Source of the DNA: an uncultured Oscillospiraceae bacterium
GTDB lineage: Bacteria > Bacillota > Clostridia > UMGS1810
Assembly (NCBI GenBank): GCA_964423705.1
Contig: CAYRGA010000001.1
Coordinates: 15,788 to 59,492 of the forward strand
Direction of reading: 5' to 3'
DNA: 43,705 nt
Shown: positions 12,939-29,873 of the stretch, piece after piece
Layout of the letters: each line of letters begins with the position of its first letter
Numbering within the stretch: the first letter of the stretch is position 1
Position numbers and translations under genes: made by a program
Notes under the pieces: generated by a model
Database searches by the model: none
Told to the model about the DNA's origin: nothing
The model's input: the letters and a program-made list of their open reading frames with translations, nothing else

Positions 12939-13686
12939 TTTTCTTACTCTCCTTTACTGCGGATTTTTTGACTTTTTCCTTTATCGGCTTGGAACTCTCA
13001 TTCTCCGAAGCACTGTCGCCGCGATAAGGTATCGACGAAAATACTGTAAGTCCCAGCAACCTCTCGGCATCTTCCTGAGTGGTAATCTTTTTATTAAACA
13101 TAGATATCAAAAAGCAAACAGCAGCCGTCAGAAACGCTCCTACCATGCCGCCCAGCAGAGTATTTTGCATTACATTCGGCGAAGACGGTGCGATAGGTGT
13201 ATTCGGCACTTCAAAGGTTTTAATGGAGTCAACTCCCACATAGTCACCGGTATACTCCTCCGTCGTTTCGCATATAGTTTCGGCTATACTCTTGGCGATC
13301 TTGGGGTCCGGACTTAACACCGACAGTTTAAGAACTCGTGTATCCTGAGGAACACTTATGTTTACCGATGACAAAAGCTGCTCCGGCGTACATTCAAGCT
13401 CCAGCTTATCTATTACCTTCTGCATAAGCTGACGGCTCTTTATTATTTCCACGCAGTCATTCACCAAGCCGACCGCAATCTGTACATCGCTGTATGTCGT
13501 GAAGGTTTCGCTGCTTATAACCTTAATAACCATTTTGGCATCCGAGCGATAAAGCGGGGTAATGCACAGTTTCGTGTACGAAAATGATATAATCGCGGTT
13601 ATAATTCCCACTATCACTATCTTCGCTATATTGTTTTTAATTATATTGAATATATCTATAATGTTTATCTCTTTTTCAGTATCCAT
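12931..13686 (-). CDS. Wzz/CpsC-type chain-length determinant and transmembrane activator of the BY-kinase
   Basis: An N-terminal transmembrane helix (IVIVGIITAIISF), a periplasm-like loop and a second helix (LLGGMVGAFLTAAVCFLI). The stop overlaps the kinase start. Confidence 0.85.
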   Translation of the reverse strand: MDTEKEINIIDIFNIIKNNIAKIVIVGIITAIISFSYTKLCITPLYRSDAKMVIKVISSETFTTYSDVQIAVGLVNDCVEIIKSRQLMQKVIDKLELECTPEQLLSSVNISVPQDTRVLKLSVLSPDPKIAKSIAETICETTEEYTGDYVGVDSIKTFEVPNTPIAPSSPNVMQNTLLGGMVGAFLTAAVCFLISMFNKKITTQEDAERLLGLTVFSSIPYRGDSASENESSKPIKEKVKKSAVKESKKNG

Positions 13687-13688
13687 TT

Positions 13689-14408
13689 TTACTCTCCTTC
13701 ATTGGTAAATATTTTTTTAGCATTGCTAAACATTATTTTATCTGCATATTCCTGAGAAGAAAACCTACTTATTACTTCAGCACAGTGATTCAGCTGAAGC
13801 TGAGTATACAAGTCACAGTGCACATCTCCGGCAATAAAATCCACGATCTGCTTTTTTAATACCTTTTTTATAAAACGCCGCATAAAAAAGTCACTTGAAA
13901 TTACCGAATTGATATTAACCTGAACCAAAGCTCCGAAGTGCTTTATGTACTCGATATTCCCGATTTCCTTTACAAACGGTCTGTAACGCTCAACATGAGC
14001 TATAATCGGTATATAACCGATTTGGATAACACGGTGTACGGCTCCGAGTATGTCATCAAACAAAGCATACGGTGCAAATTCCAGCAATATATATTTTGTC
14101 CCACCGAGTGTCTGTAGCTTGCCGCCGCGCAGCATGCGCGGAATAACACTTGAATACTCGATTTCACATCCAAGATACAGATTTATTCCTATGCCGTTTT
14201 GACTGCATCCGTCCTTAAGCATATTAAAAGAAGAAGTTATCTTTTCATTAGAAAGCTTATATCCTCTCCTAACGGAATAATGCGGCGTAAGCACAACATC
14301 ATTTACACCCAGGCTCTCCATAGTGTGCAAAATTTTAAGTGATTCGTCAAGTGTTTTGGAACCGTCATCAATTCCGGGAATTAAATGCGAATGAATGTCA
14401 AATAACAT
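13689..14408 (-). CDS. CpsB/CapC-type PHP-family protein-tyrosine phosphatase
   Basis: MLFDIHSHLIPGIDDG N-terminus and AHVERY and GDVH metal-ligand motifs. I chose the start at 14408 because the listed GTG at 14444 sits about 4 nt from the predicted transcription start. Confidence 0.8.
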   Translation of the reverse strand: MLFDIHSHLIPGIDDGSKTLDESLKILHTMESLGVNDVVLTPHYSVRRGYKLSNEKITSSFNMLKDGCSQNGIGINLYLGCEIEYSSVIPRMLRGGKLQTLGGTKYILLEFAPYALFDDILGAVHRVIQIGYIPIIAHVERYRPFVKEIGNIEYIKHFGALVQVNINSVISSDFFMRRFIKKVLKKQIVDFIAGDVHCDLYTQLQLNHCAEVISRFSSQEYADKIMFSNAKKIFTNEGE

Positions 14409-14454
14409 GTAAAACCACACATCCCCACTATAATTAATTATCACTATCTAAATC

Positions 14455-14527: not shown

Positions 14528-14556
14528 TTGACACCGTGAGCTTCGTGTACTATACT
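14528..14556 (+). promoter_or_regulatory. Sigma-70 promoter of the secreted nuclease gene, divergent from the cps promoter
   Basis: TTGACA (14528-14533), 17-nt spacer, TATACT (14551-14556). Confidence 0.55.
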
Positions 14557-14613
14557 TCTGATATAGCATGCATCCTGTCCGATGCAAAGAAAAGATTAAT
14601 TGAAGGTGATACG

Positions 14614-15873
14614 ATGAAAAAGCCAAAAATTCTGTTGCTTGCAGCCGTGATTGCCGGCACGTTTTCCTTGTCGCCCCATACCTTAGCAAGCAATATGCCC
14701 GACATTGTCGTAAAAATGCAGATTGACAATCCCCTAATGGAAATAAATGGTGTAAAAACAGAGATAGACGTCGGCCTGACTACAGCTCCCGTAATCAAAA
14801 ATGACCGTACTTTGGTTCCTATAAGATCTGTAGCCGAAACCTTCGGCGGTAAAGTCACCTGGAATGAAGATACACGTTCCATTCTCCTTACCATGGATGG
14901 TGACGAAATCGAACTGACTATCGACAGTGATATCGCACACATAAACGGAAACGCCGAGGTTCTTGACACCGCTCCGACCGTTATAAACGACCGCACAATG
15001 CTCCCGCTTCGATTCATTGCGGAGAGTTTTAAACTGGGAGTGGCATGGGATGAAAGTACTCAAACCGTATCTCTGATACGAAATTCCTTCGACGATAACG
15101 AACACAATGCGCTTGAAAGTGTACTGATCGAATATTCGGGTCAGCCATACATGCAGATTAACAATAATATCCCATTTTTCAAAAGCTACGAAATTATAAA
15201 CGGCTCCTTTGAATACTACAGCAGACTCGATGAGCTCGGCAGATGTGATGTATGCTTTGCATCCGTAGCGAAGGACACCATGCCCGCAGCCGACCGAGAG
15301 AGCATCTCCGCAGTAACACCCACAGGCTGGATAAATGCCTCATATGATAACATAGACGGCGGATATATTTACAACAGATGTCACTTGATAGGCTTTCAGC
15401 TTACGGGCGAAAACGCCAATGAAAGAAACCTTATTACAGGTACAAGGTACTTGAACATAGACGGAATGCTTCCTTTTGAAAATCAGATAGCAGATTACGT
15501 AAACAAAACCGAAAATCATGTGCTGTACCGCTCAACCCCTGTTTTCACAGACAGCAATTCGGTCGCAGACGGTGTTCTTTTGGAAGCATATTCGGTAGAA
15601 GATAACGGCGGGGGAATATCATTCTGTGTATTCTGCTACAATGTACAGCCGGGTATCACAATTGATTATTTAACGGGAGAAAGCAGTTATTCGGGTCAGG
15701 CATCCGTACCGATTAATGACAATACCGCTTCGAAAATTTATCGAACACCGAGCGGTAAAAAATATCATTCAAGTGTCGAATGCGGTGGCAAAAACAGTTA
15801 TGAAATATCGTGGGATGAAGCAGTAAAATCAAAGCTTACACCATGTTCAAAATGCATCGGCTCATCAAAGTAA
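14614..15873 (+). CDS. Secreted DNA/RNA non-specific endonuclease with an N-terminal copper-amine-oxidase-like (stalk) domain and a Cys/His-rich tail
   Basis: ATG at 14614, 5 nt after AGGTGA. Signal peptide MKKPKILLLAAVIAGTFSLSPHTLA. Two repeats of the form NDRTLVPIRSVAETFGGKVTW / NDRTMLPLRFIAESFKLGVAW. Nuclease core RCHLIGFQLTGENANERNLITGTRYLN. Tail KYHSSVECGG..TPCSKC. Confidence 0.8.
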   Translation: MKKPKILLLAAVIAGTFSLSPHTLASNMPDIVVKMQIDNPLMEINGVKTEIDVGLTTAPVIKNDRTLVPIRSVAETFGGKVTWNEDTRSILLTMDGDEIELTIDSDIAHINGNAEVLDTAPTVINDRTMLPLRFIAESFKLGVAWDESTQTVSLIRNSFDDNEHNALESVLIEYSGQPYMQINNNIPFFKSYEIINGSFEYYSRLDELGRCDVCFASVAKDTMPAADRESISAVTPTGWINASYDNIDGGYIYNRCHLIGFQLTGENANERNLITGTRYLNIDGMLPFENQIADYVNKTENHVLYRSTPVFTDSNSVADGVLLEAYSVEDNGGGISFCVFCYNVQPGITIDYLTGESSYSGQASVPINDNTASKIYRTPSGKKYHSSVECGGKNSYEISWDEAVKSKLTPCSKCIGSSK

Positions 15874-17684: not shown

Positions 17685-17721
17685 TAAAATAAAACAGCGG
17701 CTGCGCATATCGCACAGCCGC
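17685..17721 (-). terminator. Rho-independent terminator of the hydrogenase operon (hairpin copy B)
   Basis: Stem GCGGCTGCGC (17697-17706) / GCACAGCCGC (17712-17721) with one C-A mismatch and loop ATATC. On the minus strand it is followed by TGTTTTATTTTAT. Confidence 0.75.
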
Positions 17722-17734
17722 CTTAAATTTACTA

Positions 17735-19471
17735 TTATTTATTTGCACTTCTGTCAACATAGTGAGTATGGAGAAGCTCATGTGCCTTATGACTTCCGGG
17801 CTCACCGAAATACTCTTTATACATAAGCTGTATATTCGGGTTCTCATGAGATTTTCTGAGAACAGAAGCTTCGTCCTCGCTGTAAAGAGCTCCTGCTCTT
17901 TTAGCTTTAACGTCAACCACAGCCTTTGTACGTGAATCGACTATCGGCTGTCCGCCGCCGTTTATACAACCACCGGGACATGCCATAATCTCAACGAAGT
18001 CATATTTCTCACCGGCTTTAATCTTATCAAGAATAACTCTTGCATTCTTTGTACCGTGAGCAACCGCAACCTTAACATCCTTTCCGGCGATTTTAAGTGT
18101 AGCTTCCTTAACGCCTTCAAGACCTCTTACCTCGGTTATATTCAGGTTATCGAGCGGCTTCTTTTCCAGAATCTCATACACTGTACGGATTGCAGCTTCC
18201 ATAACACCGCCTGTCGTACCGAAGATAACGCCGGCACCTGTAGCAGCTCCGAACGGCTGGTCAAACTCTTCGTCCGGAAGATTTGCAAAGTCGATACCTG
18301 CCTGCTTAATCATTCTGGCAAGCTCTCTTGTGGTGAGAGAAACATCGATATCCTGTGTTCCGTCGGTTGAAAATTCATCTCTGCTTGCTTCAAATTTCTT
18401 TGATGTACAAGGCATGATGGCCACAGAATATATCTTATTCTTATCGATACCCGATTTCTCTGCATAATAAGACTTAATAACCGCACCGAACATTTCCATA
18501 GGCGATTTGCATGAGGACAAATTACCCAAAAATTCCGGATAGTAGTGCTCACAGAATTTAACCCAACCGGGTGAACATGAAGTGATAATCGGGAGATTTT
18601 CCTGTTTGGTGAATCTCTCTATAAACTCTGTACCCTCCTCCATAATGGTAAGGTCGGCACTTGTATCTGTATCAAATACCTTATCAAAGCCAAGGCGTCT
18701 TAAAGCAGCTACCATCTTTCCGGTAACCGGTGTTCCCATCGGAAGACCGAATTCCTCGCCGAGAGCGGCACGAACTGCCGGAGCAGTCTGTACAACCACG
18801 TGCTTTTCGGGGTCGTCTATAGCGCTTATAACCTTCGGGATATCATTCTTTTCGGTAAGAGCTCCTACCGGACATGAAACTATACACTGACCGCAGAATA
18901 TACATCCCACATCCTTGATATCCTTTTCAAATGTAGATGTAATGTGTGTTTTAAATCCTCTGTCAGCACAGTCGATAACCGAAACTGTCTGATTCTTACA
19001 AGCCGCTATGCAACGACGGCAAAGTATACATTTGTTGTTATCTCTCACAAGTGAAGTAGACGTATTATCGAGCGGATAGCTGATATTTTCGCCTTCATAT
19101 CTGAGCTCGTCGATACCAAGCTCCTCAGAGAGCTGCTGAAGCTCACAGTTTCTGTTTCTTACACAGGTAAGACATTTCTTTTCGTGGTTTGAAAGGATAA
19201 GTTCCAGTGTGTCGCGTCTTGCCTTTCTTACCTTAGCCGAATTTGTATAAATCTCCAAGCCTTCCGAAACGGGATATACACACGCAGCCTGAAGTGCTCT
19301 GGCTCCCTTTATCTCTACAAGACACATTCTGCATGCACCTATCTGATTGATATCCTTGAGATAACAAAGCGTAGGTATGTGAACATTTGCATCTCTTGCA
19401 GCATCAAGGATGGTGTAAGATGCAGGAACGCTGTATTCTTTATCATTAATTTTAATATTTACCATATCCAT
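17735..19471 (-). CDS. hydA: [FeFe]-hydrogenase catalytic subunit, HydABC/Hnd (NADH/ferredoxin-linked, bifurcating-type) class
   Basis: N-terminal plant-type 2Fe-2S domain and several 4Fe-4S motifs. H-cluster motifs are ITSCSPGW, IMPCTSKKFE and EIMACPGGCINGGGQP. RBS AAGGAGGG. Confidence 0.95.
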   Translation of the reverse strand: MDMVNIKINDKEYSVPASYTILDAARDANVHIPTLCYLKDINQIGACRMCLVEIKGARALQAACVYPVSEGLEIYTNSAKVRKARRDTLELILSNHEKKCLTCVRNRNCELQQLSEELGIDELRYEGENISYPLDNTSTSLVRDNNKCILCRRCIAACKNQTVSVIDCADRGFKTHITSTFEKDIKDVGCIFCGQCIVSCPVGALTEKNDIPKVISAIDDPEKHVVVQTAPAVRAALGEEFGLPMGTPVTGKMVAALRRLGFDKVFDTDTSADLTIMEEGTEFIERFTKQENLPIITSCSPGWVKFCEHYYPEFLGNLSSCKSPMEMFGAVIKSYYAEKSGIDKNKIYSVAIMPCTSKKFEASRDEFSTDGTQDIDVSLTTRELARMIKQAGIDFANLPDEEFDQPFGAATGAGVIFGTTGGVMEAAIRTVYEILEKKPLDNLNITEVRGLEGVKEATLKIAGKDVKVAVAHGTKNARVILDKIKAGEKYDFVEIMACPGGCINGGGQPIVDSRTKAVVDVKAKRAGALYSEDEASVLRKSHENPNIQLMYKEYFGEPGSHKAHELLHTHYVDRSANK

Positions 19472-19486
19472 CTTATGTACCCTCCT

Positions 19487-21280
19487 TTATTTTATAATAG
19501 CATTCTTAGGACAGTTATCCACGCAAACGCCGCATTTAACGCATTTTTCGGAATCAATGTAATGAACCTTCTTGATTTCGCCGGAAATAGCACCGACCGG
19601 ACAGTTTCTCGCACACTTGGTACATCCGATACATTTATCCTGGTCAATCTTATAGGAGATAAGCGCCTTACATACACCGGCAGGACATTTCTTGTCCACA
19701 ACGTGTGCAACATACTCATCTCTGAAATATCTCAACGTACTGAGAATCGGGTTCGGTGCAGTCTGTCCCAGACCGCAAAGTGCGGAATCCTTTATACTGT
19801 AGCAAAGCTCTTCGAGCTTGTCAATATCCTCAAGTGTACCCTCGCCCTTTGTAATCTTATTGAGTATTTCCAAAAGACGCTTTGTACCTATACGGCACGG
19901 AGCACATTTACCGCAGGATTCATCAACGGTAAATTCAAGGAAGAATTTCGCGATATCAACCATACAGTTATCCTCGTCCATTACGATAAGACCGCCGGAG
20001 CCCATCATCGAACCGATGCTGATGAGTGAATCATAGTCAATCGGTGTATCAATAAGGGATGCCGGTATACATCCGCCGGAAGGACCTCCCGTCTGAGCTG
20101 CTTTAAACTGCTTGCCATTTGGAATACCTCCGCCTATATCATATACGATTTCACGAAGCGTGGTACCCATGGGGATTTCCACAAGACCGGTATTGTTAAT
20201 CTTACCGCCGACAGCGAATACCTTGGTACCCTTACTCTTTTCTGTTCCTATTTCAGCAAACCATTTTGCACCGTTATTTATAATAGCAGTGATGTTTGCA
20301 TAGGTTTCAACGTTGTTAAGCAGTGTAGGCTTGCCGAAAAGTCCCTTGACAGCCGGGAACGGCGGTCTCGGTCTTGGCTCACCTCTGTGACCTTCGATAG
20401 AGGTCATAAGTGCTGTTTCCTCACCGCAGACAAACGCACCTGCACCGAGTCTTAATTCAAGTTCAAAGTTAAAGCCGGTATCAAATATATTTTTACCGAG
20501 CAAGCCGTACTCTCTTGCCTGCTTTATAGCCATATTAAGTCTGTTTACAGCTATCGGGTACTCAGCTCTGATGTAGATGTAGCCCTGGTCTGCGCCTACT
20601 GCGTATGCAGCAATGGCCATAGCCTCTATAACAGAGTGCGGGTCACCCTCCAAAACGCTTCTGTCCATGAATGCACCGGGGTCACCCTCGTCGGCATTAC
20701 ATGCTACGAATTTCTTGTCACCTTGTGAGTTAGCGGTAAACTGCCATTTAAGTCCGGTCGGGAATCCGCCGCCGCCGCGGCCTCTGAGACCGGATTCTTT
20801 AATTTCATCGATTACTTCCTGCGGTTTCATCTCGGTAAGAACCTTTCCGAGAGCGGTATATCCGCCGAAAGCTATGTATTCGTCAATTGCCTCAGGGTTT
20901 ATAACACCACAGTTTCTGAGTGCGACACGCTGCTGCTTTTTATAAAAGTCAACCTCGTTAAGCGACTTAATGTTGTCCTCGTCAACCACAGTTTCCTTGT
21001 AAAGCAATCTTTTAACGATTCTGCCCTTTAAAAGATGTTCTTCTACGATTTCTTCAACGTCGTCCTCCTGAACCATGCTGTAAAAAGCACCCTCGGGATA
21101 TACGATGACAATCGGACCCAAAGCGCACAGACCGAAGCAACCTGTCTGAATAACCTTGATTTCCTCGGACAGACCTTTTTCTGCCAAACTGTCTTCAAAT
21201 TTCTTTATAATTTTGCCGCTTCCCGATGAGGTACATCCGGTACCGCCACAGACAAGGACATGAGCTCTTGCTAATTCCAT
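19487..21280 (-). CDS. hydB: NuoF-like flavoprotein subunit (FMN/NAD(H) binding) with an N-terminal thioredoxin-like 2Fe-2S domain and a C-terminal 2x[4Fe-4S] domain
   Basis: VLVCGGTGC..TGCFGLC; GRGGGGFPTGLKW; ESCGKCAPCR; C-terminal CIGCTKCARNCP and CVKCGVCVDNCP. Confidence 0.95.
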   Translation of the reverse strand: MELARAHVLVCGGTGCTSSGSGKIIKKFEDSLAEKGLSEEIKVIQTGCFGLCALGPIVIVYPEGAFYSMVQEDDVEEIVEEHLLKGRIVKRLLYKETVVDEDNIKSLNEVDFYKKQQRVALRNCGVINPEAIDEYIAFGGYTALGKVLTEMKPQEVIDEIKESGLRGRGGGGFPTGLKWQFTANSQGDKKFVACNADEGDPGAFMDRSVLEGDPHSVIEAMAIAAYAVGADQGYIYIRAEYPIAVNRLNMAIKQAREYGLLGKNIFDTGFNFELELRLGAGAFVCGEETALMTSIEGHRGEPRPRPPFPAVKGLFGKPTLLNNVETYANITAIINNGAKWFAEIGTEKSKGTKVFAVGGKINNTGLVEIPMGTTLREIVYDIGGGIPNGKQFKAAQTGGPSGGCIPASLIDTPIDYDSLISIGSMMGSGGLIVMDEDNCMVDIAKFFLEFTVDESCGKCAPCRIGTKRLLEILNKITKGEGTLEDIDKLEELCYSIKDSALCGLGQTAPNPILSTLRYFRDEYVAHVVDKKCPAGVCKALISYKIDQDKCIGCTKCARNCPVGAISGEIKKVHYIDSEKCVKCGVCVDNCPKNAIIK

Positions 21281-21299: not shown

Positions 21300-21671
21300 T
21301 TATTTGTTCGCACCGATAGTATATTCAGAAACGACTTTTCCGTTTACGACCGTTTCATTTACCATCTTCACAGCTTTTTCGGCAGTCATCTCAACATAAG
21401 TGATTTTCTCACTGCCCGGCATATAAACCTCAACAATCGGCTCATATTTACACATACCTATGCAGCCTGTCTGTGTAACATATACGCTGTCTGTGAGATT
21501 TCTCTTTTCGATTTCGTCCATTATTGCCTTAAGTACAGGTCTTGCTCCTGCCGCGATACCGCAGGTTGCCATTCCCACAACTATGCGGATGCTGTCTTCG
21601 CTTTCTTTTCTGAGATTTACCTTTGCCAAGGTCTTATTTCTCAATTCCTCCAACTGAGCTAAGCTTTTCAT
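21300..21671 (-). CDS. hydD: Small thioredoxin-like ferredoxin subunit (HydD/HndB-type) with only three Cys
   Basis: 123 aa. Motifs GMATCG....TGCIGMC. Positioned between the ATPase gene and hydB, as in Hnd/Hyd tetrameric clusters. Confidence 0.8.
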   Translation of the reverse strand: MKSLAQLEELRNKTLAKVNLRKESEDSIRIVVGMATCGIAAGARPVLKAIMDEIEKRNLTDSVYVTQTGCIGMCKYEPIVEVYMPGSEKITYVEMTAEKAVKMVNETVVNGKVVSEYTIGANK

Positions 21672-22226
21672 TTATAAAGCACCTCCATATAATTTTTGTG
21701 TTTCTTCCCTAATATAGTCCTCAATCCATTTAAGAACATCGATTTCACTCAGTGCAATATCACTGCCGAGTACCTTCCGTATCTCTGCGGTGGAAAGTTC
21801 AAAGGCTTCACCGTTACAGGTGTGCCTGTACACATAATCGATTTTATCGTTTCCTCCGATAAGTGTACTCATGGTGGAAGCCATGTCACCGAGCGGCTGA
21901 CGGTCGATACTGTCATATATCAAAACCGCCGTAACCCTTGTACCGACACCGCGCTCCGACTCGACCCTAAAGTTTCCGCCCGTAAGCTCACACGCATTTT
22001 TAAAGAGCGAAAGTCCGAGTCCCACCTTGCGTGTCGTCCTCGTAGTTCTGAACGGATTTACCACATCACTCAGAAATTCCTTGTCCATACCGCAGCCGTT
22101 GTCATTTATCACTATTGTAAGAGTATCCGCGCTTACATTCTCATCAACCTCAATCTCTATAAGCGTTGCTTTGGCTTTTACGGAATTTTGAGCAATGTCC
22201 AAAATATGCAGTGATAATTCGGTCAT
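21672..22226 (-). CDS. Stand-alone GHKL (histidine-kinase-like) ATPase domain protein embedded in the hydrogenase structural genes
   Basis: ATG at 22226 (MTELSLHILDIAQNS), after GGAG. N-box HILDIAQNS, G1 DNGCGM, G2 GLGLSL. No DHp/His phospho-acceptor region. Confidence 0.8.
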   Translation of the reverse strand: MTELSLHILDIAQNSVKAKATLIEIEVDENVSADTLTIVINDNGCGMDKEFLSDVVNPFRTTRTTRKVGLGLSLFKNACELTGGNFRVESERGVGTRVTAVLIYDSIDRQPLGDMASTMSTLIGGNDKIDYVYRHTCNGEAFELSTAEIRKVLGSDIALSEIDVLKWIEDYIREETQKLYGGAL

Positions 22227-22353
22227 AATAATCTCCGTATATAATTTAAGATATATCAGTATGCTTTTTTTGCCATTTACACAAAGCACATTCGGTATTA
22301 TAATTATTGATAGTGGATAACGCCGTCCATGCGTGCCGTAAATCAGCTATGTA

Positions 22354-22845
22354 TTACATATATTTGGCAAGAATGTCATCGACATCGTCCACGGTAAGTC
22401 TGCCGTAAACCTCATCGTTGACAGTGAGTACCGGCGCAAGACCGCATGCACCTATACAACGAGTGGCATCAAGCGAGAATTTTCCGTCTGCCGTACATTC
22501 GCCGACATCAATACCGAGTCTCTGCTTGATTCTTTCGATTATATCACCGCTGCCCTTAACGTAGCAGGCGGTACCGAGACAGACTGCGACCTGATACTGA
22601 CCCTTTGGATAAATTGAAAACTGCGTGTAAAATGTAACAACGCCGTAAATCTCCGACATCGGTATATCAAGTCCGTCGGAAATCTTCTGCTGTACTTCCT
22701 TCGGGAGATATCCGAAGATATCCTGTGCCTCATGAAGAACAGGTATAAGTGCGCCTTCAGTGCCCTTATACTTCTCAATTACATTTTTAAGTTTTTCGTC
22801 TTGTTCTGCTGTGCTTACAAAAGCCGGAGCTTTTATTTCACTCAT
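22354..22845 (-). CDS. hydC: NuoE-like 2Fe-2S subunit of the hydrogenase
   Basis: 163 aa. Motifs CLGTACYVKG ... CIGACGLAPV. RBS GAGGGGG. Confidence 0.9.
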   Translation of the reverse strand: MSEIKAPAFVSTAEQDEKLKNVIEKYKGTEGALIPVLHEAQDIFGYLPKEVQQKISDGLDIPMSEIYGVVTFYTQFSIYPKGQYQVAVCLGTACYVKGSGDIIERIKQRLGIDVGECTADGKFSLDATRCIGACGLAPVLTVNDEVYGRLTVDDVDDILAKYM

Positions 22846-22944
22846 GCGTAAACCCCCTCATAATTTGTTTTATATTTGTTTTATAAAAATTAACACACAA
22901 ACTCATAATAAGTATAACATATTTTTATTTATTTCGCCATTATT

Positions 22945-23700
22945 TTAATCACTGTTATACAAATTCGTCGTTTTGCATAATTGTTTTGTTTTTTTACCTT
23001 CTAGTTTTGTGATTATTTGCCGTAGATTGTTGCTCTCCACATCGATATAATACTCTTTTTCATGTATATCCCACAGAAAATGTGCATCGGAATCGTGTAT
23101 CATCATATATTTGTCGATTCTGTTTGTAAGCGAAAGCCTGTTTATGCTTGACGGATTCTTTATTTCAACCGTTGAAAGCTCCAATTCCTCGGGTATTAGA
23201 CCGAGATTCGATACAAGGCTGTAGGAATCCTTGTCAATATGTGCCGGAATTATAACTCCGCCCAGACCTCTGACACATTCCGCAGCACGGTATACGTCAA
23301 GCTTTGAAGCAGTAATCAATAAATTTTCAAGTGTGCCCACCGCATTGTCATTTTCATCCATAATTATCTGTTCACCGAATATATCGGCTCGGTTTTTGAC
23401 CGGCGGCATGCTTGATGTCACTATATCGTCAAGCTCCTCAAGTGCCTCCACATTATCAAACAATGCCAGCATGTGAACCTCCTCGGAGGTTTCAAGCTCC
23501 ATTCCGGGAATGACGATAAGCGAAGTTTCCTGTGCACACTTCATGCATGCACGCACATTTTTCGCCGAATTATGGTCTGTGACCGCAATGGCATCCAAGC
23601 CCTTTAACAATGCCATGTTTACTATGTTGTTCGGTGTCATGTCATTGTCACCGCATGGTGACAGTGCAGAATGAATATGAAAATCATAATACAGTTTCAT
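22945..23700 (-). CDS. PHP-domain (polymerase/histidinol-phosphatase fold) metal-dependent phosphoesterase
   Basis: YDFHIHSALSPCGDNDMTP, AVTDHNS and a later HDSDAH motif. ATGA overlap with the upstream DRTGG gene. Confidence 0.85.
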   Translation of the reverse strand: MKLYYDFHIHSALSPCGDNDMTPNNIVNMALLKGLDAIAVTDHNSAKNVRACMKCAQETSLIVIPGMELETSEEVHMLALFDNVEALEELDDIVTSSMPPVKNRADIFGEQIIMDENDNAVGTLENLLITASKLDVYRAAECVRGLGGVIIPAHIDKDSYSLVSNLGLIPEELELSTVEIKNPSSINRLSLTNRIDKYMMIHDSDAHFLWDIHEKEYYIDVESNNLRQIITKLEGKKTKQLCKTTNLYNSD

Positions 23701-24023
23701 ATCAGCTTACCTATTTCAACACACAGCTCATATGCGGGAAGCTGAGTTCTCAAAATGGTGACATTTTCGCTTTTTGCCTTTTCGGCAACTGACTCATCCA
23801 CGCTCATACCCTGTGCAATTATTATACAGCTGGGTTCCGTAAGTACGGCTATTGCCGCAATGTTGATATTGGTCTGAACGGTTACCCACACGTTATTACT
23901 GCTTATATTCGACATACAGTGGCTCAGTAAATCCGAGCAGTAGCAGCCCTCCGCCGTTACCGACATATCACCCTCGGACACCACCTCAAGCTTTAATTCG
24001 TTTTTCAGTTCTTCTACCGTCAT
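23697..24023 (-). CDS. Single-domain DRTGG protein (copy 2)
   Basis: 108 aa. Shares the pattern of copy 1 (CSDLLSHCMSN.., VWVTVQTNINIAAIAVLTEPSCIIIAQG, ILRTQLPAYELCVEIGKL). Overlaps the genes on both sides by ATGA. Confidence 0.7.
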   Translation of the reverse strand: MTVEELKNELKLEVVSEGDMSVTAEGCYCSDLLSHCMSNISSNNVWVTVQTNINIAAIAVLTEPSCIIIAQGMSVDESVAEKAKSENVTILRTQLPAYELCVEIGKLI

Positions 24024-25312
24024 TTTTTATCACCGCCATTATCGGTATGCATTACGTCATTTGCAAACCTTAATATTTTCTCTTTAAATTTTATTATGCA
24101 GTCATCCTCCGCAGCATATCCGCGCACGACATCCTCTGCCAGCGAACGGCAGGTGGGCGAACCACAGGAGCCGCAGTCAAGCTTCGGAAGTCCCTCATAG
24201 ATTTCTTCAATTTTCGCGAGCTTCTGCATTGCGACAAGCATGTTGTCGTCCAAATTGAGCTTTGATTCAAAGGGAATGGGCGAGTCCCACATAAAGCTAC
24301 ACGGTGTTTCCTCATCGAAGTCGACACCGTTTTCATTGGTGCTTTTGAGCGCAAGATTTTTAACACGTCTTTTCGCCACAAAACCGTTTTCTACATTTAA
24401 AGGACCTCCCACACAGCCGCCGGTACAGGCGAGAAGCTCTATGAATTTTATATCCTTTAATCGATTGTTTTCGATTTCGTCCAGTATCTTGAGTACATTG
24501 TGTATGCCGTCCACTGCGATGTAATTATCGCCGCCGTTTGCAGCCGCCTCACCGCCGCTGTTTGCCCAGCATATCCCCGAAAAGCCTGCTTTTGAAAGCT
24601 TTTCTATATTATCATTATCCTTGAGATACGGCAGAATTTTAAGATATACATCCTTTACGGAAAAGGTACCGTCTATATTCGTCATTGACAAACCAATCGG
24701 ATAACGTGCACAGGTTGCCTTTGCGGCACAGGGCGTTATGAAAATCAAGCCTATCTCCTCACTTTTAAATCCTGTCTTTTCCATCGCCTCTTTTCTTGCA
24801 AGCTTGGCTGCCAGCTGCATGGGTGATATAAGTGGAACCACATTATTTATAAGGTTCGGAAATCGCGTAGCTATGAGCTTAACCACAGCCGGGCATGCCG
24901 AATTTATAGCCGGCGTTTCCAAGTGCTTTAAATCCATGAGCTTTTTCGTTTCACGTGTAATCATCTGGGCCGCATATGCGACCTCGTACACATGGTCAAA
25001 GCCAATCTTAAGCAAAGCATTTAATATGACGTCGATATCCTCCGCCTGCGCAAACTGCCCATAAAAGGTAGGCGCGGGCAGAGCCACCGTGTATTTGAAA
25101 TCCTTTAGCCGCTCCAAGCTGTCCGTCACGGCTTTTTTCGCGTGATACGGGCAAATCCGTATACATTCGCCGCAGTCAATGCACTTTTCTTTTAAAATTT
25201 TCGCCTTTCCGTTTTGAACACGTATCGCCTGTGTCGGACAGGTTTTGATGCAGTTCGTGCACCCCTTGCACTTATCTCTGTCCAACAGCACCGAATGTCT
25301 GATATCTTCCAT
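24020..25312 (-). CDS. HydS-like (putative sensory) [FeFe]-hydrogenase paralogue with a 2x[4Fe-4S] domain, H-domain and C-terminal CX2CX4CX16C Fe-S domain
   Basis: CKGCTNCIKTCP and CIDCGECIRICP. H-domain motifs NSACP, ITPCAAKATC and ELLACTGGCVGGP. Tail CGSCGSPTC-X16-C. I chose the ATG at 25312 (MEDIRHSV), after AAGGATGGTGA. Confidence 0.85.
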   Translation of the reverse strand: MEDIRHSVLLDRDKCKGCTNCIKTCPTQAIRVQNGKAKILKEKCIDCGECIRICPYHAKKAVTDSLERLKDFKYTVALPAPTFYGQFAQAEDIDVILNALLKIGFDHVYEVAYAAQMITRETKKLMDLKHLETPAINSACPAVVKLIATRFPNLINNVVPLISPMQLAAKLARKEAMEKTGFKSEEIGLIFITPCAAKATCARYPIGLSMTNIDGTFSVKDVYLKILPYLKDNDNIEKLSKAGFSGICWANSGGEAAANGGDNYIAVDGIHNVLKILDEIENNRLKDIKFIELLACTGGCVGGPLNVENGFVAKRRVKNLALKSTNENGVDFDEETPCSFMWDSPIPFESKLNLDDNMLVAMQKLAKIEEIYEGLPKLDCGSCGSPTCRSLAEDVVRGYAAEDDCIIKFKEKILRFANDVMHTDNGGDKK

Positions 25313-25461
25313 TTCTTCACCATCCTTCAAAAAGGAATTTTAAAAATATAAACTTAACGAAAATAACAACCGCCCATAGTCTAATCTGCGTATTCAACCG
25401 CAAATACCCATTGCCGTGCAATAATTATGTAAACGCAGTTGCAGCGGATTCAGTGTTAAGC

Positions 25462-25887
25462 TTATTGGCTGATATTTACTATCATTTCGACCGTGGTTCC
25501 GACCCCGACCTCTGTTTCTATATTAATATAATCTGTGTATTTTCGCATATTCGGAAGACCCATACCGGCACCGAATCCCAGCTCTCGAACTCGGTCTGTA
25601 GCTGTGGAATACCCTTCTGTCATGGCAAGGTCTATATTCTTTATACCCGGCCCGCGGTCACGCAGAAACATATGTATTTTCTCCGGCGAAATCTCCACAT
25701 CTATAACTCCGCCGTTTGCATGAATTACCATGTTAATCTCACCCTCGTACATTGCAATTGTCGCTTTTCTGGCTATCTGCGGGTCTATGCCGAGCTGCAC
25801 GAGCACTTTTTTTAAATTCCGTGATGCCTCCCCCGCTACCGTGAAGTCATCTCCGTCCACATTGTAGCTGAGCTTGTATCCCTCCAT
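25462..25887 (-). CDS. SpoIIAB/RsbW-like anti-sigma-type Ser/Thr kinase (GHKL ATPase, 141 aa)
   Basis: N-box MYEGEINMVIHA, G1 DRGPGI, G2 GFGAGMGL. RBS AAGGAGGG. Confidence 0.8.
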   Translation of the reverse strand: MEGYKLSYNVDGDDFTVAGEASRNLKKVLVQLGIDPQIARKATIAMYEGEINMVIHANGGVIDVEISPEKIHMFLRDRGPGIKNIDLAMTEGYSTATDRVRELGFGAGMGLPNMRKYTDYINIETEVGVGTTVEMIVNISQ

Positions 25888-25966
25888 GCAATCCCTCCTT
25901 ATTTCAGTGTAAGACTAAAACGCAAGCAAAATAAACCGCCTTAAAAAAGACAGTGTCCGCTTTTTG

Positions 25967-26305
25967 TCAATTGTAAAGACCGCTGCCGTACAGCTTGCCG
26001 CATGCGAGATAAAGCGGAAGCTCCGTGGACATTATAACTATGTTTGCGTCCTCCGCCAATTTCAAAATTTCCTCCGCCGGCTGCTTGCCCCTTACAAAAA
26101 CGATGGCCTTCATATCCATCATTTCTGCCGTCCTGACAACCTGAGGATTTATAAGACCCGTAAGCAAAAGAGCCTGGTCCTTAACAAATGCCAGCACATC
26201 ACTCATAAGGTCACAGCCGCACGCCGCGAAAACCTCCTTGCCCATTTTGTCCTCTCCGCAAAGCACCTGCGCGGAAAGAATCCCCCTTACTTCATCAAGT
26301 TTCAT
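25967..26305 (-). CDS. Single-domain DRTGG protein (copy 1), first gene of the hydrogenase operon
   Basis: 112 aa. Motifs CGCDLMSDVLAF, ALLLTGLINPQVVRTAEMMDMKAIVFVRG, IMSTELPLYLACGKL. RBS GGGAGG. Confidence 0.7.
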   Translation of the reverse strand: MKLDEVRGILSAQVLCGEDKMGKEVFAACGCDLMSDVLAFVKDQALLLTGLINPQVVRTAEMMDMKAIVFVRGKQPAEEILKLAEDANIVIMSTELPLYLACGKLYGSGLYN

Positions 26306-26319
26306 ATTAACCTCCCTGC

Positions 26320-26350
26320 ATGTAATTACATATTTTAAATTATAATATCA
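26320..26350 (-). promoter_or_regulatory. Promoter -10 region plus a palindromic operator candidate of the hydrogenase operon
   Basis: On the minus strand: TGATATTATAAT (26350-26339), containing overlapping extended -10 TGnTATTAT and TATAAT elements. A 12-nt perfect palindrome ATGTAATTACAT at 26320-26331 lies between the -10 region and the RBS. Confidence 0.4.
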
Positions 26351-26478
26351 TAATTGCACAAAAAAGTCTATAGCAAAATCGGATTTTTATTCAATTTTAT
26401 CCTAATTTATGTGAGTTTTTTGGATAATATGCTTTTTATATTTTGCGATATACCTGTCGAAAATCCTTTTCCTGTCAC

Positions 26479-27418: not shown

Positions 27419-28377
27419 AGTGCACCTTCTCCTTCGGTTAAAAATTTTCCGGCAAACTCCGAGCACAAATACCGCATTTGCTCCGTACACTCCTTCACGT
27501 AATCCGTAAGCTCATCGAAGCTTCTGTTTCTGGCATGGTTCACCGTGGGTATACCCTCAAGACACATGTGGTATTTTGCGGTAAGCGGATACGGCAAGCC
27601 AATCTCGGTAAAACCCACAGTTCCTATAAGCGACTGAAGCAGTTCGGCTTTCTGCGGCTCGTTTTTAAAATTGGCACAGAGCCAGACATACAGCTCCGGA
27701 TGAAAATTACACATTATACCGCAGTATCCGTCACCGCCGCTTCTCAGTGACGACAGCAAGGTCTGACAATTTGCGTTTAAAAGCTTAAATGAGCTGTCCT
27801 TGAGCAATTTACAACGGTCACTTATGGTTTTTGCATTGCAACAGGTGTCCTTCATGTAGTAAAATCTGCCGCTTTCAAGACACCAACTGAGTATCCTCGG
27901 TGTCACAAGCCTTTTGTACGGCATGGGGCACTCGTAAAGTCCAAGTTTAACCCCGCTCGGCAGAGCCTCTGTCACTTTTTCGGCATTTCTGAGCCATTCA
28001 TCATCACCATCGTTGTTCAAATCAAACCTGTTCGTTATCAAAATCAGCGCATCCGTTCCCGATTCCGCAATTTTGTTAAGCTCATAAATCTGGTCATCAA
28101 TCTTGTCTGACACATGCGCCGAGGACACGACCGTCATTTTTCTGCCGTACTCCTTTTCAAGCTCCTTTACCCTTTGCCAAACGGTCTTATTAATTTTTAC
28201 TCTTTCTTCAAGTGTAAGATAAAATATCTCACTCGACTGGCACACCGCAAAGATGCCGTCCAAGCCTTTTTTGTAATACCAGTCAACGTATTTTTTTACC
28301 GCTTCGTAATCAACACCGCCGTCGGAAAGATACGGCGTTATCATAGTAGTGAATGCTTCCGCTTTTTTCATCGTCAT
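27415..28377 (-). CDS. DHDPS / N-acetylneuraminate-lyase family class I (Schiff-base) aldolase
   Basis: TTMITPY N-terminus, GIFAVCQSSEIFYLTLEER, and the candidate catalytic Lys in YYMKDTCCN. Confidence 0.8.
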   Translation of the reverse strand: MTMKKAEAFTTMITPYLSDGGVDYEAVKKYVDWYYKKGLDGIFAVCQSSEIFYLTLEERVKINKTVWQRVKELEKEYGRKMTVVSSAHVSDKIDDQIYELNKIAESGTDALILITNRFDLNNDGDDEWLRNAEKVTEALPSGVKLGLYECPMPYKRLVTPRILSWCLESGRFYYMKDTCCNAKTISDRCKLLKDSSFKLLNANCQTLLSSLRSGGDGYCGIMCNFHPELYVWLCANFKNEPQKAELLQSLIGTVGFTEIGLPYPLTAKYHMCLEGIPTVNHARNRSFDELTDYVKECTEQMRYLCSEFAGKFLTEGEGAL

Positions 28378-29873
28378 ACTTCCTCAAAATTATAATTTGT
28401 TTCTCTGAAATCAGAAAATCTGTGAAAGGTAATCATATTTGAATCATGATAGTTTGTGCAGTCGTGTAGAGCGGTTCTGCACACCGCCAGTATGTCATTT
28501 CCGTCGAAAACCCAGTCGCAATAGTACATTCCCGCCTCGCGGCACGATTGATACCAGTTCAAATCAAGTAAATTTATACAATCCCTTTCTATGCTCCAGC
28601 TGCACAGGTCATCAGAGCTTACCAGCGAAAGTATGTTCCTTTGGCAGCACATATTTCCGGTGGCTCTGCTCACAAGCGAATAATATTTTTTCGACTTATC
28701 ATCATAATTAACGGTAAACTTTGAAAGTCCACCTATAAAATGCTGCATCCGCACAAATTCAAGCGGTGCAGAAGGGTTTCTTTTGTCCGCCTTCATTACC
28801 ACGACCTTCAAGCCGTCATCGGAAGGCTCTATAAATTCCGCTCCGTAATTCACACTGTTGTAGCGTGCTATCACGTATACCTCATCGTCAGGTCCGACTA
28901 CGGCGTTCGCCTCCTCCATCATGTACGGCCACATACCATCCACCGTGCCGCTCCATGACTTGTCATAATACAAATACGGTTCTGTGACAACCCAGTTTTT
29001 ACCGTCCGTTATATCGCAGTTAATGTCGACACTGGCGGCTGCCATGCCAAAGCCGCTCTCGGGATTTTTCGGGGTGTCAAACGCAACCCAAAGCCTACCG
29101 TCACATTCGACCACGGGAGTTGCCGCCTTGTGAAAGCCACCCGTCCTCGCACCGGTAATGCTGCACGGCTTTCCGAAGGTGTGTCCACCGTCCTCCGAGC
29201 AAAACAGCATTATGTCAAGCCCGCTCTGTTTTATGTTGCTGTCACCTCTGCGTTCCTCCAGATTAAACGGGTCGGCTAATACCGCATCATCGGTTGATGA
29301 CAGCGCAATCATGCATAGCTTGTCCTTAAACAAAAACAGCTTTCCGAAGGTGCAGCTGTGTATGTCGCTTAAAAAGCTCCATGTTTTGCCGTTATCCGAT
29401 GATTTATACAGCTTCGTCACACAGGTTTCGTATGCGGTTTTATCTCTGAAATCAACACCGAATTTGTTGGGATAGGATTCCAGAAACAAATCATGACTTA
29501 CTATAATATCGCCGTTTTTCATTTTCACAATGCTCGGACTTCCCAGATACCTTCCGGCAGGATCAAACGTACTGTCGTACGGATGAAGATATGTCACGCA
29601 CCTTCCGGGAACATAATTCGGAATCAGCACTCTGGTATTGCTCTCGGCGATAATGTTTTCGTCTTTATCATACGCACGGGCGGTGACAAAGTATTTTTTG
29701 TTGTTTTCAAGACCGCTAACCTCCGCATGTCCGCGCCGTATATCATAATTTTCTTCAACTCTTCTGTTGTTTTCATCACATATTTCAATTTTCAAAGATT
29801 CTGTTTTTATTGGGATATCTCCCACAGATATCTGCGCCCCGGCATCGTGTGGGGCAATAATTTGTATAATCAT
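28374..29873 (-). CDS. Cytoplasmic BNR/Asp-box beta-propeller glycosidase (sialidase-like) with an N-terminal beta-sandwich domain
   Basis: Asp-boxes SSDNGKTW and SEDGGHTF. No signal peptide (MIIQIIAPHDAG). RBS AAGGAG 5 nt before the ATG. Confidence 0.7.
   Translation of the reverse strand: MIIQIIAPHDAGAQISVGDIPIKTESLKIEICDENNRRVEENYDIRRGHAEVSGLENNKKYFVTARAYDKDENIIAESNTRVLIPNYVPGRCVTYLHPYDSTFDPAGRYLGSPSIVKMKNGDIIVSHDLFLESYPNKFGVDFRDKTAYETCVTKLYKSSDNGKTWSFLSDIHSCTFGKLFLFKDKLCMIALSSTDDAVLADPFNLEERRGDSNIKQSGLDIMLFCSEDGGHTFGKPCSITGARTGGFHKAATPVVECDGRLWVAFDTPKNPESGFGMAAASVDINCDITDGKNWVVTEPYLYYDKSWSGTVDGMWPYMMEEANAVVGPDDEVYVIARYNSVNYGAEFIEPSDDGLKVVVMKADKRNPSAPLEFVRMQHFIGGLSKFTVNYDDKSKKYYSLVSRATGNMCCQRNILSLVSSDDLCSWSIERDCINLLDLNWYQSCREAGMYYCDWVFDGNDILAVCRTALHDCTNYHDSNMITFHRFSDFRETNYNFEEV

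Follow-up and report, generated by a model that had tools for sequence, protein, structure and literature searches.

We analyzed a 43,705-nucleotide stretch of the genome of an uncultured Oscillospiraceae bacterium (GenBank assembly GCA_964423705.1, contig CAYRGA010000001.1, positions 15,788 to 59,492; hereafter called the window), which contains a block of ten same-strand genes around a putative hydrogen sensor. This block very probably represents a group D hydrogenase sensor module, built around the hydrogenase-like protein HydS, joined to the operon of an A1/A6-type [FeFe]-hydrogenase, HydABCD. The module, here called the cassette, encodes in order a small DRTGG-domain protein (DRTGG1), a SpoIIAB-like ATP-binding protein of the GHKL family (GHKL141), HydS, a second DRTGG protein (DRTGG2) and a PHP-family phosphoesterase (PHP). 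The association is one that had already been recognized, and the locus in the window is an ordinary member of its class. What we add is the complete and conserved parts list, in which DRTGG1, DRTGG2, the SpoIIAB-like GHKL141 and PHP are joined by a second GHKL protein (GHKL184) encoded inside the hyd operon, together with a set of candidate residues and candidate partner pairs. We give an even chance to the reading that these proteins form an H2-responsive, sigma-free phospho-switch around HydS that works in the manner of a partner switch.

A putative sensory hydrogenase of group D

By Pfam, HydS carries two Fer4 domains, an Fe_hyd_lg_C domain (E 1e-35) and an FeS domain (PF04060) over residues 381 to 412; the protein stops at residue 430, and Pfam finds no PAS domain in it. 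Among 28 aligned sequences, the cysteines of both N-terminal [4Fe-4S] motifs (C15/18/21/25 and C44/47/50/54) are invariant, as are the four H-cluster cysteines (Cys140, Cys195, Cys296 and Cys300), for which the motifs of DdH provide an alignment. Substitutions mark the active site, with A139 at the position of C299 in CpI, T193 at that of M353 and L294 at that of M497; L1 accordingly has the motif S138-A139-C140-P141 and L2 the motif T193-P194-C195. HydS therefore keeps three accessory [4Fe-4S] sites while the proton-relay cysteine is absent, the third site being the C-terminal motif C380x2C383x4C388x16C405, which has exactly the Cx2Cx4Cx16C spacing. The criteria for group D (also called M2e), including this C-terminal motif without a PAS domain, were set out by Land et al. 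2020 (PMC8163306). The 430-amino-acid protein has every sequence feature by which that class is defined, and by its sequence it is a group D putative sensory [FeFe]-hydrogenase. Its nearest entries in the PDB are the Desulfovibrio HydAB enzymes (E ~1e-24), and it has no close solved structure. The family is very large (at least 7,700 clusters at 90% identity), with lengths of 415 to 441 amino acids among the matches listed. One apparent 511-amino-acid HydS fusion (P0153) was discarded, its extra length being a frameshifted low-complexity tail.

The named group D loci are TamHydS of Thermoanaerobacter mathranii (Tmath_0862), Cthe_0335, Athe_1292, Csac_1857, TTE0887, Teth39_1463 and Cphy_3798. 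Like HydS of the window, these combine two N-terminal [4Fe-4S] clusters, an H-domain and the C-terminal Cx2Cx4Cx16C motif without a PAS domain; they share the exchange of C299 for alanine and of M353 for a hydroxyl residue, and they stand five genes before hydD/hydB/hydA with a kinase-like gene adjoining. We see no substantive difference from them, and the window protein is at most 64% identical to those of GTDB species representatives. The one characterized member, TamHydS, is catalytically competent, though slow, and of low activity (PMC8163306); low-turnover, CO-tolerant, sensor-like catalysis is biochemistry that has been reported for TamHydS only. The original prediction, made from the letters of the window, had compared the locus with PAS-bearing HydS proteins alone and so overlooked the PAS-less group D (M2e) class, TamHydS and the known link of this class to A1 operons. 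It correctly sensed that an output is missing from the locus, although the TamHydS authors had already left the route of signal transduction as an unanswered question (PMC8163306). TamHydS is reportedly flanked by an "AraC regulator" (PMC8163306); a counterpart of this type was ruled out here, since neither gene flanking HydS has a helix-turn-helix (HTH) match.

HydA matches the family model NF040763 ("NADH-dependent [FeFe] hydrogenase, group A6"), and by subunit composition HydABCD is an A1/A6-type electron-bifurcating [FeFe]-hydrogenase, bifurcation itself being predicted. For C. thermocellum, Caldicellulosiruptor, Caldanaerobacter, Thermoanaerobacter and C. phytofermentans, Carere et al. 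2012 list, with each bifurcating hydrogenase of the "A1 TR(M3)" type, an M2e gene that precedes hydD/B/A by exactly five genes, and Verbeke et al. 2013 reported the same M2e-before-A1 arrangement in all Thermoanaerobacter strains. The order in the window, M2e-DRTGG2-PHP-HydC-GHKL184-HydD-HydB-HydA, fits this published five-gene spacing. The literature thus already puts group D genes upstream of A1-type HydABC(D) and "near protein kinases"; the published accounts name just "a histidine kinase-like ATPase," "protein kinases" or an "AraC regulator," and the two DRTGG genes and the PHP gene go unmentioned in the retrievable papers on group D loci. In two other genomes, NCBI names the orthologues simply "DRTGG domain-containing," "ATP-binding" and "PHP domain-containing." Nor did the searched literature yield a functional study of the cassette or a role for its DRTGG, PHP or GHKL partners, in agreement with the original prediction that these have no assigned role.

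Conservation of the cassette and layout of the locus

One genome per GTDB species was scanned, giving at least 559 confirmed loci, and we analyzed the best 80 of these (47 to 64% identity), which come mostly from metagenome-assembled genomes (MAGs) of Oscillospirales and Clostridia and include one Thermoanaerobacteraceae MAG and Harryflintia acetispora. Gene order was assigned by iterated hidden Markov model (HMM) searches with the ten window proteins. The order DRTGG-GHKL141-HydS-DRTGG-PHP was found in 73 of the 80 loci, and 5 of the other 7 are cut by contig ends. The two uncut loci outside the 73 are without PHP (L005, 3439-6755) or without both DRTGG2 and PHP (L010, 9152-12688). A locus with a partial order that was counted within the 73 (L042, 8660-12370) has HydS-DRTGG2-PHP directly after infC-rpmI-rplT, without DRTGG1 and GHKL141. 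Look-ups that started from homologues of DRTGG1 or GHKL184 and relied on precomputed Pfam labels recovered the same arrangement. Given that the same order recurs over 80 species-level loci and in these independent look-ups, the arrangement of the cassette is not a matter of chance.

The hyd operon adjoins the cassette in 47 of 63 informative loci (~75%). It lies directly downstream on the same strand, as hydC-GHKL184-hydD-hydB-hydA, in 34 of the 63, and divergently upstream in 13; in three loci (L047, L050 and L066) hydC is placed in front of the cassette. GHKL184 is present in every cassette-linked hyd operon of these loci, and hydD always follows it, while extra trimeric hydC-hydB-hydA copies near the cassette are without both GHKL184 and hydD. 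In L020, L027, L043 and L046, a second set of this trimeric kind lies 1.5 to 2.6 kb upstream of the cassette, so that in some genomes a single sensor module has two hydrogenases of the bifurcating type around it.

Just as consistent is what does not accompany the cassette. When the 692 flanking open reading frames (ORFs) of the 80 loci were clustered, no family was present in more than 12 loci, the number reached by the commonest, an ABC ATPase; the recurrent families have housekeeping functions, and no sigma factor, STAS, receiver, HTH or PAS gene is a recurrent neighbor. Since no such family recurs among the flanking ORFs, the cassette has no DNA-binding or sigma-type partner that travels with it. 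Within the window, Pfam and NCBIfam scans of the ten proteins, in which regulator models were judged at an E value of ≤0.01, gave zero matches to sigma, STAS, receiver, HTH, PAS and HisKA/DHp (dimerization and histidine phosphotransfer) models. These scans and the survey bear out the original prediction that none of these domains is present. A PP2C/SpoIIE domain was likewise found neither in the ten proteins nor among the Pfam-labeled genes of the related loci that were looked up.

The ten ORFs, all on the minus strand from 26305 down to 17735, were found at the coordinates first given for them, and profile scans reproduced both the proposed gene order and all of the proposed domain assignments (Table 1). 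The ATG starts of HydS and GHKL184 fit the homologue lengths of 430 and 184 amino acids. Two ATGA overlaps, read directly in the sequence, join HydS to DRTGG2 and DRTGG2 to PHP, and these three genes are translationally coupled through them. GHKL184 and hydD abut with zero gap, and the remaining junctions measure 15 to 149 nucleotides (nt). Upstream of DRTGG1, past the terminator of the preceding pfkB-type gene, lie two promoter-like hexamer pairs, TTGCTA-18-TATGAT and TAGACT-17-TATTAT, each with 9 of 12 matches to the consensus. An Rfam scan of the whole window returned no riboswitch or RNA leader family at the gathering score.

Table 1. Features of the ten-gene block, in window coordinates
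Feature	Position	Strand	Description
DRTGG1	25967-26305	-	112 aa, single-domain DRTGG protein
GHKL141	25462-25887	-	141 aa, SpoIIAB/RsbW-type GHKL ATP-binding protein, putative Ser/Thr kinase
HydS	24020-25312	-	430 aa from ATG (436 aa from upstream TTG); group D (M2e) putative sensory [FeFe]-hydrogenase
DRTGG2	23697-24023	-	108 aa, DRTGG/Hpr_kinase_N-like, paralogue of DRTGG1
PHP	22945-23700	-	251 aa, PHP-family metal-dependent phosphoesterase
HydC	22354-22845	-	163 aa, NuoE-like [2Fe-2S] subunit; PF01257 (2Fe-2S_thioredx) E 2.9e-54
GHKL184	21672-22226	-	184 aa from ATG; stand-alone histidine-kinase-type ATP-binding (Bergerat) domain
HydD	21300-21671	-	123 aa, small [2Fe-2S] ferredoxin subunit of thioredoxin-like type; weak matches to NF041612 and PF01257
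HydB	19487-21280	-	597 aa, NuoF-like FMN/NADH subunit; Complex1_51K, NADH_4Fe-4S, SLBB, Fer4
HydA	17735-19471	-	578 aa, bifurcating-type catalytic [FeFe]-hydrogenase; NF040763 916 bits vs cutoff of 765
Promoter-like hexamer pairs	26342-26376	-	upstream of DRTGG1; consensus match only
Intrinsic terminator	17696-17722	-	after hydA, closing the block; strong hairpin, 12-bp stem with 8 GC pairs, then T-run

The genes that flank the block serve sugar metabolism and capsule functions and are unrelated to it. At 12141-14444 (minus strand) the window holds a capsule-type tyrosine-kinase module, in which 13689-14444 encodes a PHP-type phosphatase of the CpsB/CapC kind (PF19567 score, 227 bits), 12931-13686 a Wzz protein for chain length, and 12141-12938 an AAA_31 ATPase that resembles BY-kinases. 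A gene on the plus strand (14536-15873) encodes a secreted-looking protein with Cu_amine_oxidN1 and nonspecific DNA/RNA endonuclease domains. On the other side, a 499-amino-acid ORF within a sugar-utilization cluster (28374-29873, minus strand) has no Pfam match at an E value of ≤1e-5.

The partner proteins

DRTGG1 and GHKL141 are the best conserved of the regulatory proteins, ahead of HydS, DRTGG2, PHP and GHKL184 (mean pairwise identity of 0.59 for GHKL141, 0.58 for DRTGG1, 0.54 for HydS and 0.40 for DRTGG2), and the gene for DRTGG1 lies directly upstream of that for GHKL141 throughout the related loci in which they occur. GHKL141 matches PF13581 (HATPase_c_2; 33.5 bits against a cutoff of 27.4) and also PF02518 (HATPase_c). 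Its sequence matches in the PDB are to SpoIIAB only (1til, 1l0o and 1th8; E ~2e-5), and the boxes of the fold are kept in 79 orthologues, with an N-box of E..N, a G1 box of D.GpGI and a G2 box of GFGAGMGL. Genes for a cognate STAS antagonist and a sigma factor, such as would accompany a SpoIIAB of the classical kind, are found neither in the operon of the window nor recurrently in the 80 loci.

Both small proteins pass the PF07085 cutoff of 25.2 bits (DRTGG1 at 29.2 bits and DRTGG2 at 29.6 bits), and DRTGG2 additionally scores above the cutoff for PF02603 (Hpr_kinase_N; 27.0 bits). The two are paralogues (26% identity, E 5e-9), with S34 of DRTGG2 aligned to S35 of DRTGG1. Residues D32, S35, D36, G50, N53, Q55, R58, T59, R72, K74 and T94 are invariant in DRTGG1, and D31, L33, S34, M37, T48 and N54 in DRTGG2; a D-x-[LM]-S motif (D32/S35 and D31/S34) is thus invariant in both, at a place where AF1212 has M..Q. 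An AlphaFold2 (AF2) model of DRTGG1, with a predicted local distance difference test (pLDDT) score of 90, superposes on AF1212 (2ioj) with a template-modeling (TM) score of 0.84, on the insert of the CBS-pyrophosphatase (3l2b/3l31) with one of 0.75, and on the N-domain of HPr kinase (1ko7/1knx) with scores of 0.6 to 0.7. DRTGG1 therefore has the same fold as these regulatory domains (AF1212, the CBS-pyrophosphatase insert and the N-domain of HPr kinase/phosphorylase [HPrK/P]) but differs from them in standing alone and in its motifs: aligned to AF1212, the D-R and T-G-G residues that give the family its name are replaced (GGDRSD by TGL.NPQ, and TGG/TGN by RGK), and an invariant D-x-M-S-D is new.

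In the model, the invariant polar residues of DRTGG1 sit at the C termini of strands and the N termini of helices and line one crevice, with S35 near a helix N terminus. This points to the crevice, which is the lowest-confidence region of the model, as a candidate phosphoryl- or ligand-binding site and makes DRTGG1 a candidate switch or ligand-binding partner of GHKL141. We accordingly name S35/S34, D32/D31 and the R58/R72/K74 crevice as candidate functional residues. The order in which an aspartate, a threonine and a lysine follow strands in DRTGG1 recalls receiver domains, although no result supports homology. A gene "with similarity with a HPr kinase" has been described upstream of the bifurcating formate dehydrogenase cluster hydD/hydB/hydC/fdhA of Clostridium aceticum (PMC7911925). 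It is a candidate for the DRTGG/Hpr_kinase_N type and, if so, could hint that DRTGG proteins also accompany other HydBC-type bifurcating enzymes.

PHP scores 37.9 bits against PF02811 (cutoff, 26.4), and its metal-binding motifs (D.H.H, E..t.Ee.H, pAH.D and SDaH) are kept in 74 orthologues. Among named families it comes closest to the TrlF N-domain, CehA/McbA, RNase RNM and the phosphatase of 3'-phosphoadenosine-5'-phosphate (pAp), and its nearest PDB entries are 3e0f and 7ug9 (RNase AM). The family numbers 461 clusters at 50% identity with an E value of ≤1e-30, nearly all of them 230 to 250 amino acids long. We considered whether PHP might be a tyrosine phosphatase of the CpsB/YwqE kind and rejected this: it has no PF19567 match, and BLASTP against the CpsB protein of the window gives an E value of 2.6. 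A gene of that other kind does occur next to the cassette in five Congzhengia-type loci (L045, L048, L052, L059 and L063), where a CpsB/YwqE-like PHP gene lies 13 to 62 bp upstream of DRTGG1 on the same strand; its product has ~238 amino acids and begins MYIDFHSHILPGIDDG.

GHKL184, embedded between HydC and HydD, matches HATPase_c (63 bits) and HATPase_c_3 (38 bits), and its sequence matches in the PDB are to histidine kinase (HK) catalytic domains only. Its AF2 model (pLDDT of 88) shows a Bergerat fold followed by a C-terminal alpha/beta subdomain. The best full-length fold matches of the model, with weak TM scores of 0.45 to 0.55, are N-terminal fragments of MutL, PMS2 and MLH1, and the catalytic and ATP-binding (CA) domains of HKs align over ~105 columns. 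We looked for a DHp domain and found no HisKA match, no helical hairpin in the model and no invariant histidine in a broader alignment (A4). GHKL184 was rejected as a two-component sensor histidine kinase on the ground that such a kinase needs a DHp domain with a phospho-accepting histidine. Besides the copy in the hyd operon, L015, L017, L018 and L022 have one more ORF of the GHKL184 kind, located ~0.9 kb upstream of DRTGG1.

Two natural fusions turned up among 150 representatives of the PHP family described above. In P0355 (373 amino acids), a DRTGG2-type domain is followed by a 30-amino-acid linker and PHP, and in P0406 (431 amino acids), PHP is followed by a GHKL184-type ATPase. Taken with the partial cassettes of L042, L005 and L010, these suggest two submodules around HydS, one of DRTGG1 and GHKL141 and the other of DRTGG2 and PHP (plus GHKL184). 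The candidate pairs that emerge are DRTGG1/GHKL141, DRTGG2/PHP and PHP/GHKL184.

Possible routes from hydrogen to an output

Three known systems bear comparison with the cassette. The group C (M2f) sensors HydS/HfsB of Thermotoga maritima, Ruminococcus albus and Thermoanaerobacterium saccharolyticum are likewise slow, hydrogenase-like proteins with the same N- and C-terminal clusters and without the proton-relay cysteine, and they too adjoin a hydrogenase operon and a gene of the GHKL Ser/Thr kinase type. However, they have a C-terminal PAS domain and a PP2C phosphatase, where the window has two DRTGG proteins and PHP instead. In the [NiFe] system HoxBC/HoxJ/HoxA of Cupriavidus necator, too, H2 is sensed by a low-activity hydrogenase, which acts through a GHKL kinase to control a metabolic hydrogenase. 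Its catalytic metal center, however, is unrelated to that of HydS, and the locus here has no equivalent of the PAS and DHp domains of HoxJ or of HoxA, a response regulator that binds DNA.

The third comparison is with the partner-switch operons spoIIAA-spoIIAB-sigF and rsbV-rsbW-sigB, which work with the PP2C phosphatases SpoIIE, RsbU and RsbX. As in these, a small alpha/beta protein is encoded directly before a GHKL protein of ~140 amino acids, with a hydrolase gene nearby, and the order in the window (a ~110-amino-acid alpha/beta protein, a ~140-amino-acid GHKL protein and then a third protein) mirrors theirs. The set is moreover duplicated, with two small proteins and two GHKL proteins, which recalls the two-tier RsbRST/RsbVW layout. 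The differences are that DRTGG is not a STAS fold, that PHP is not a PP2C phosphatase, that there is no sigma factor and that GHKL141 falls short of the equivalog cutoffs.

What we observed is a parts list and its conservation, and every functional step that follows is one that we infer. In the reading given an even chance at the outset, which is the best supported of those considered, H2 would reduce the slow H-cluster of HydS, and the redox state of the C-terminal cluster would then alter the binding of the small partners. GHKL141, with ATP, would either phosphorylate a DRTGG protein or bind one in an ATP/ADP-dependent manner. The phosphorylation site would be the conserved DRTGG crevice, with S35/S34 or D32/D31 as candidate acceptors, and PHP, acting with DRTGG2 and linked to GHKL184, would reset the switch. 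The output may reach HydABCD by protein-protein contacts, possibly through GHKL184, or may pass to an unlinked regulator, while Rex would separately control hyd transcription in many relatives. The separate elements of this scheme deserve separate judgments. That DRTGG proteins serve in a phospho- or partner-switch is a tentative proposal, with the balance leaning somewhat against it, and a direct posttranslational effect on HydABCD is more doubtful. The fullest version, in which stand-alone DRTGG proteins are previously unrecognized phospho- or ligand-switch partners of RsbW/SpoIIAB-type kinases, reset by PHP, and a PAS-less HydS gates a bifurcating hydrogenase posttranslationally in response to H2, we regard as unlikely in its entirety.

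Several observations weigh against such a switch, and some of them bear on inferences that the original prediction had drawn. GHKL141 scores well below the equivalog cutoffs of the SpoIIAB family models (TIGR01925, 49.6 against 135 bits; NF003144, 16.7 against 145 bits). Neither a STAS-like nor a receiver-like fold, for which DRTGG1 was considered a candidate, is among its top 50 fold matches, so DRTGG cannot be equated with STAS, and the idea that it is a phospho-target is an analogy only. The same holds for the notion that PHP takes the place of PP2C: PHP is not homologous to PP2C, and its closest characterized relatives (3e0f, 7ug9 and TrlF/CehA-type proteins) are phosphoesterases that act on nucleotides or RNA ends. 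The two fusions are represented by one cluster each, and an assembly artifact may lie behind either, which makes them weak evidence for the pairs. The published case for signaling by the cassette proteins is one of genomic context only, with phosphorylation, binding and the H2 response all inferred. Finally, the tie between cassette and hydrogenase, which the original prediction had proposed to check by a neighborhood survey, holds insofar as the five-gene order is near-universal and hyd is usually adjacent, but 16 of the 63 informative loci have no hyd operon within at least 3 kb of the cassette. Conversely, in L085 (8756-14536) a hydC-GHKL184-hydD-hydB-hydA operon has no cassette within 10 kb and has a gene for an HTH_3 and Cupin_2 regulator directly upstream of hydC.

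Transcriptional control provides a further counterweight. Rex-type operators (TTGTKAAN4TTMACAA with ≤2 mismatches) were found within the 300 nt before hydC in 18 of 46 related loci and upstream of the cassette in 11 of 74, compared with a background of 2.35% in random segments. None of the matches in the window is better than chance, and the AT-rich stretch between PHP and hydC shows, by eye, no clear box. Such boxes before hydC mean that many relatives transcribe the hyd operon as a unit of its own that responds to NADH. They weaken the proposal, made from the window alone, that control is posttranslational rather than transcriptional, as does the separation of cassette and hyd genes in about one-quarter of the informative loci.

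These findings bear directly on a rival explanation, in which the output is itself transcriptional but runs through an unlinked factor. GHKL141 would then be an anti-sigma factor or kinase for a remote sigma factor or repressor and would set the expression of hyd and other fermentation genes according to H2, as has been proposed for the PAS-type HydS/HfsB. The only structural relatives of GHKL141 by sequence are indeed anti-sigma F factors, and deletion of hfsB, which is of the PAS-type group C, alters the expression of other genes (PMC5707799). A diffusible or transcriptional output would also make it easier to understand why the cassette and hyd stand apart in ~25% of informative loci and why the gap before hydC is longer than those within the cassette and often bears an operator. 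Nevertheless, sigma, HTH and STAS genes are not among the recurrent neighbors of the cassette in the 80 loci, whereas classical partner-switch operons carry their sigma gene; the operators that were found are of the Rex type and would sense NADH, not the cassette; and the "AraC regulator" of TamHydS has no counterpart here, to judge from the lack of an HTH match in the flanking genes and from the NCBI names of the orthologues in two other genomes. We consider this explanation distinctly unlikely.

The nature of PHP and of the DRTGG crevice raises another alternative, somewhat less likely again, in which the cassette senses nucleotides or energy without protein phosphorylation. Here, the ligand bound by DRTGG and hydrolyzed by PHP would be a phosphate-bearing small molecule (an adenine nucleotide, a dinucleoside polyphosphate, pAp or NAD(H)), and the GHKL proteins would be ATP/ADP clamps that tune the hydrogenase together with HydS. 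The nearest relatives of PHP, being nucleotide phosphoesterases of the pAp phosphatase and RNase AM types, are what this would lead one to expect, and R58, R72 and K74 of DRTGG1, together with the Asp, Ser, Thr and Asn residues of the same crevice, would make a typical phosphate-binding site. The full-length model of GHKL184 is closer to GHL ATPase fragments (MutL/PMS2) than to complete kinases, and the presence of a DRTGG insert correlates with the response of CBS-pyrophosphatases to diadenosine polyphosphates (ApnA) (PMC7705103). However, the nucleotides of the CBS-pyrophosphatases bind to the CBS domains and not to DRTGG (PMC7705103), DRTGG2 is without the basic residues, and DRTGG1 has other residues in place of the canonical DR and TGG. 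GHKL141, moreover, retains the full set of SpoIIAB kinase-type motifs.

It is very unlikely that HydS is instead the regulated enzyme, a slow accessory hydrogenase or electron-input module that occupies the sigma position and is controlled by the other cassette proteins, namely the kinase-like one, the two DRTGG proteins and PHP (it might, for instance, be a valve for H2 uptake beside HydABCD): the order DRTGG1-GHKL141-HydS does parallel that of antagonist-kinase-target operons, TamHydS is catalytically competent, though slow, and one Thermoanaerobacter survey classed the orthologue as "Fd-linked" (ferredoxin linked), but HydS resembles the other putative sensors in its altered active site and in lacking the proton-transfer pathway, TamHydS has low activity and the tight link to hydABCD across taxa fits a regulator better.

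If the phospho-switch around HydS does exist, a sigma-free partner-switch circuit based on DRTGG proteins would be widespread in fermentative Clostridia of the gut, the rumen and thermophilic habitats. HydABC(D) is a main route to H2 in fermentative Firmicutes and therefore affects interspecies H2 transfer in guts, rumen and digesters as well as the yields of biofuel strains.

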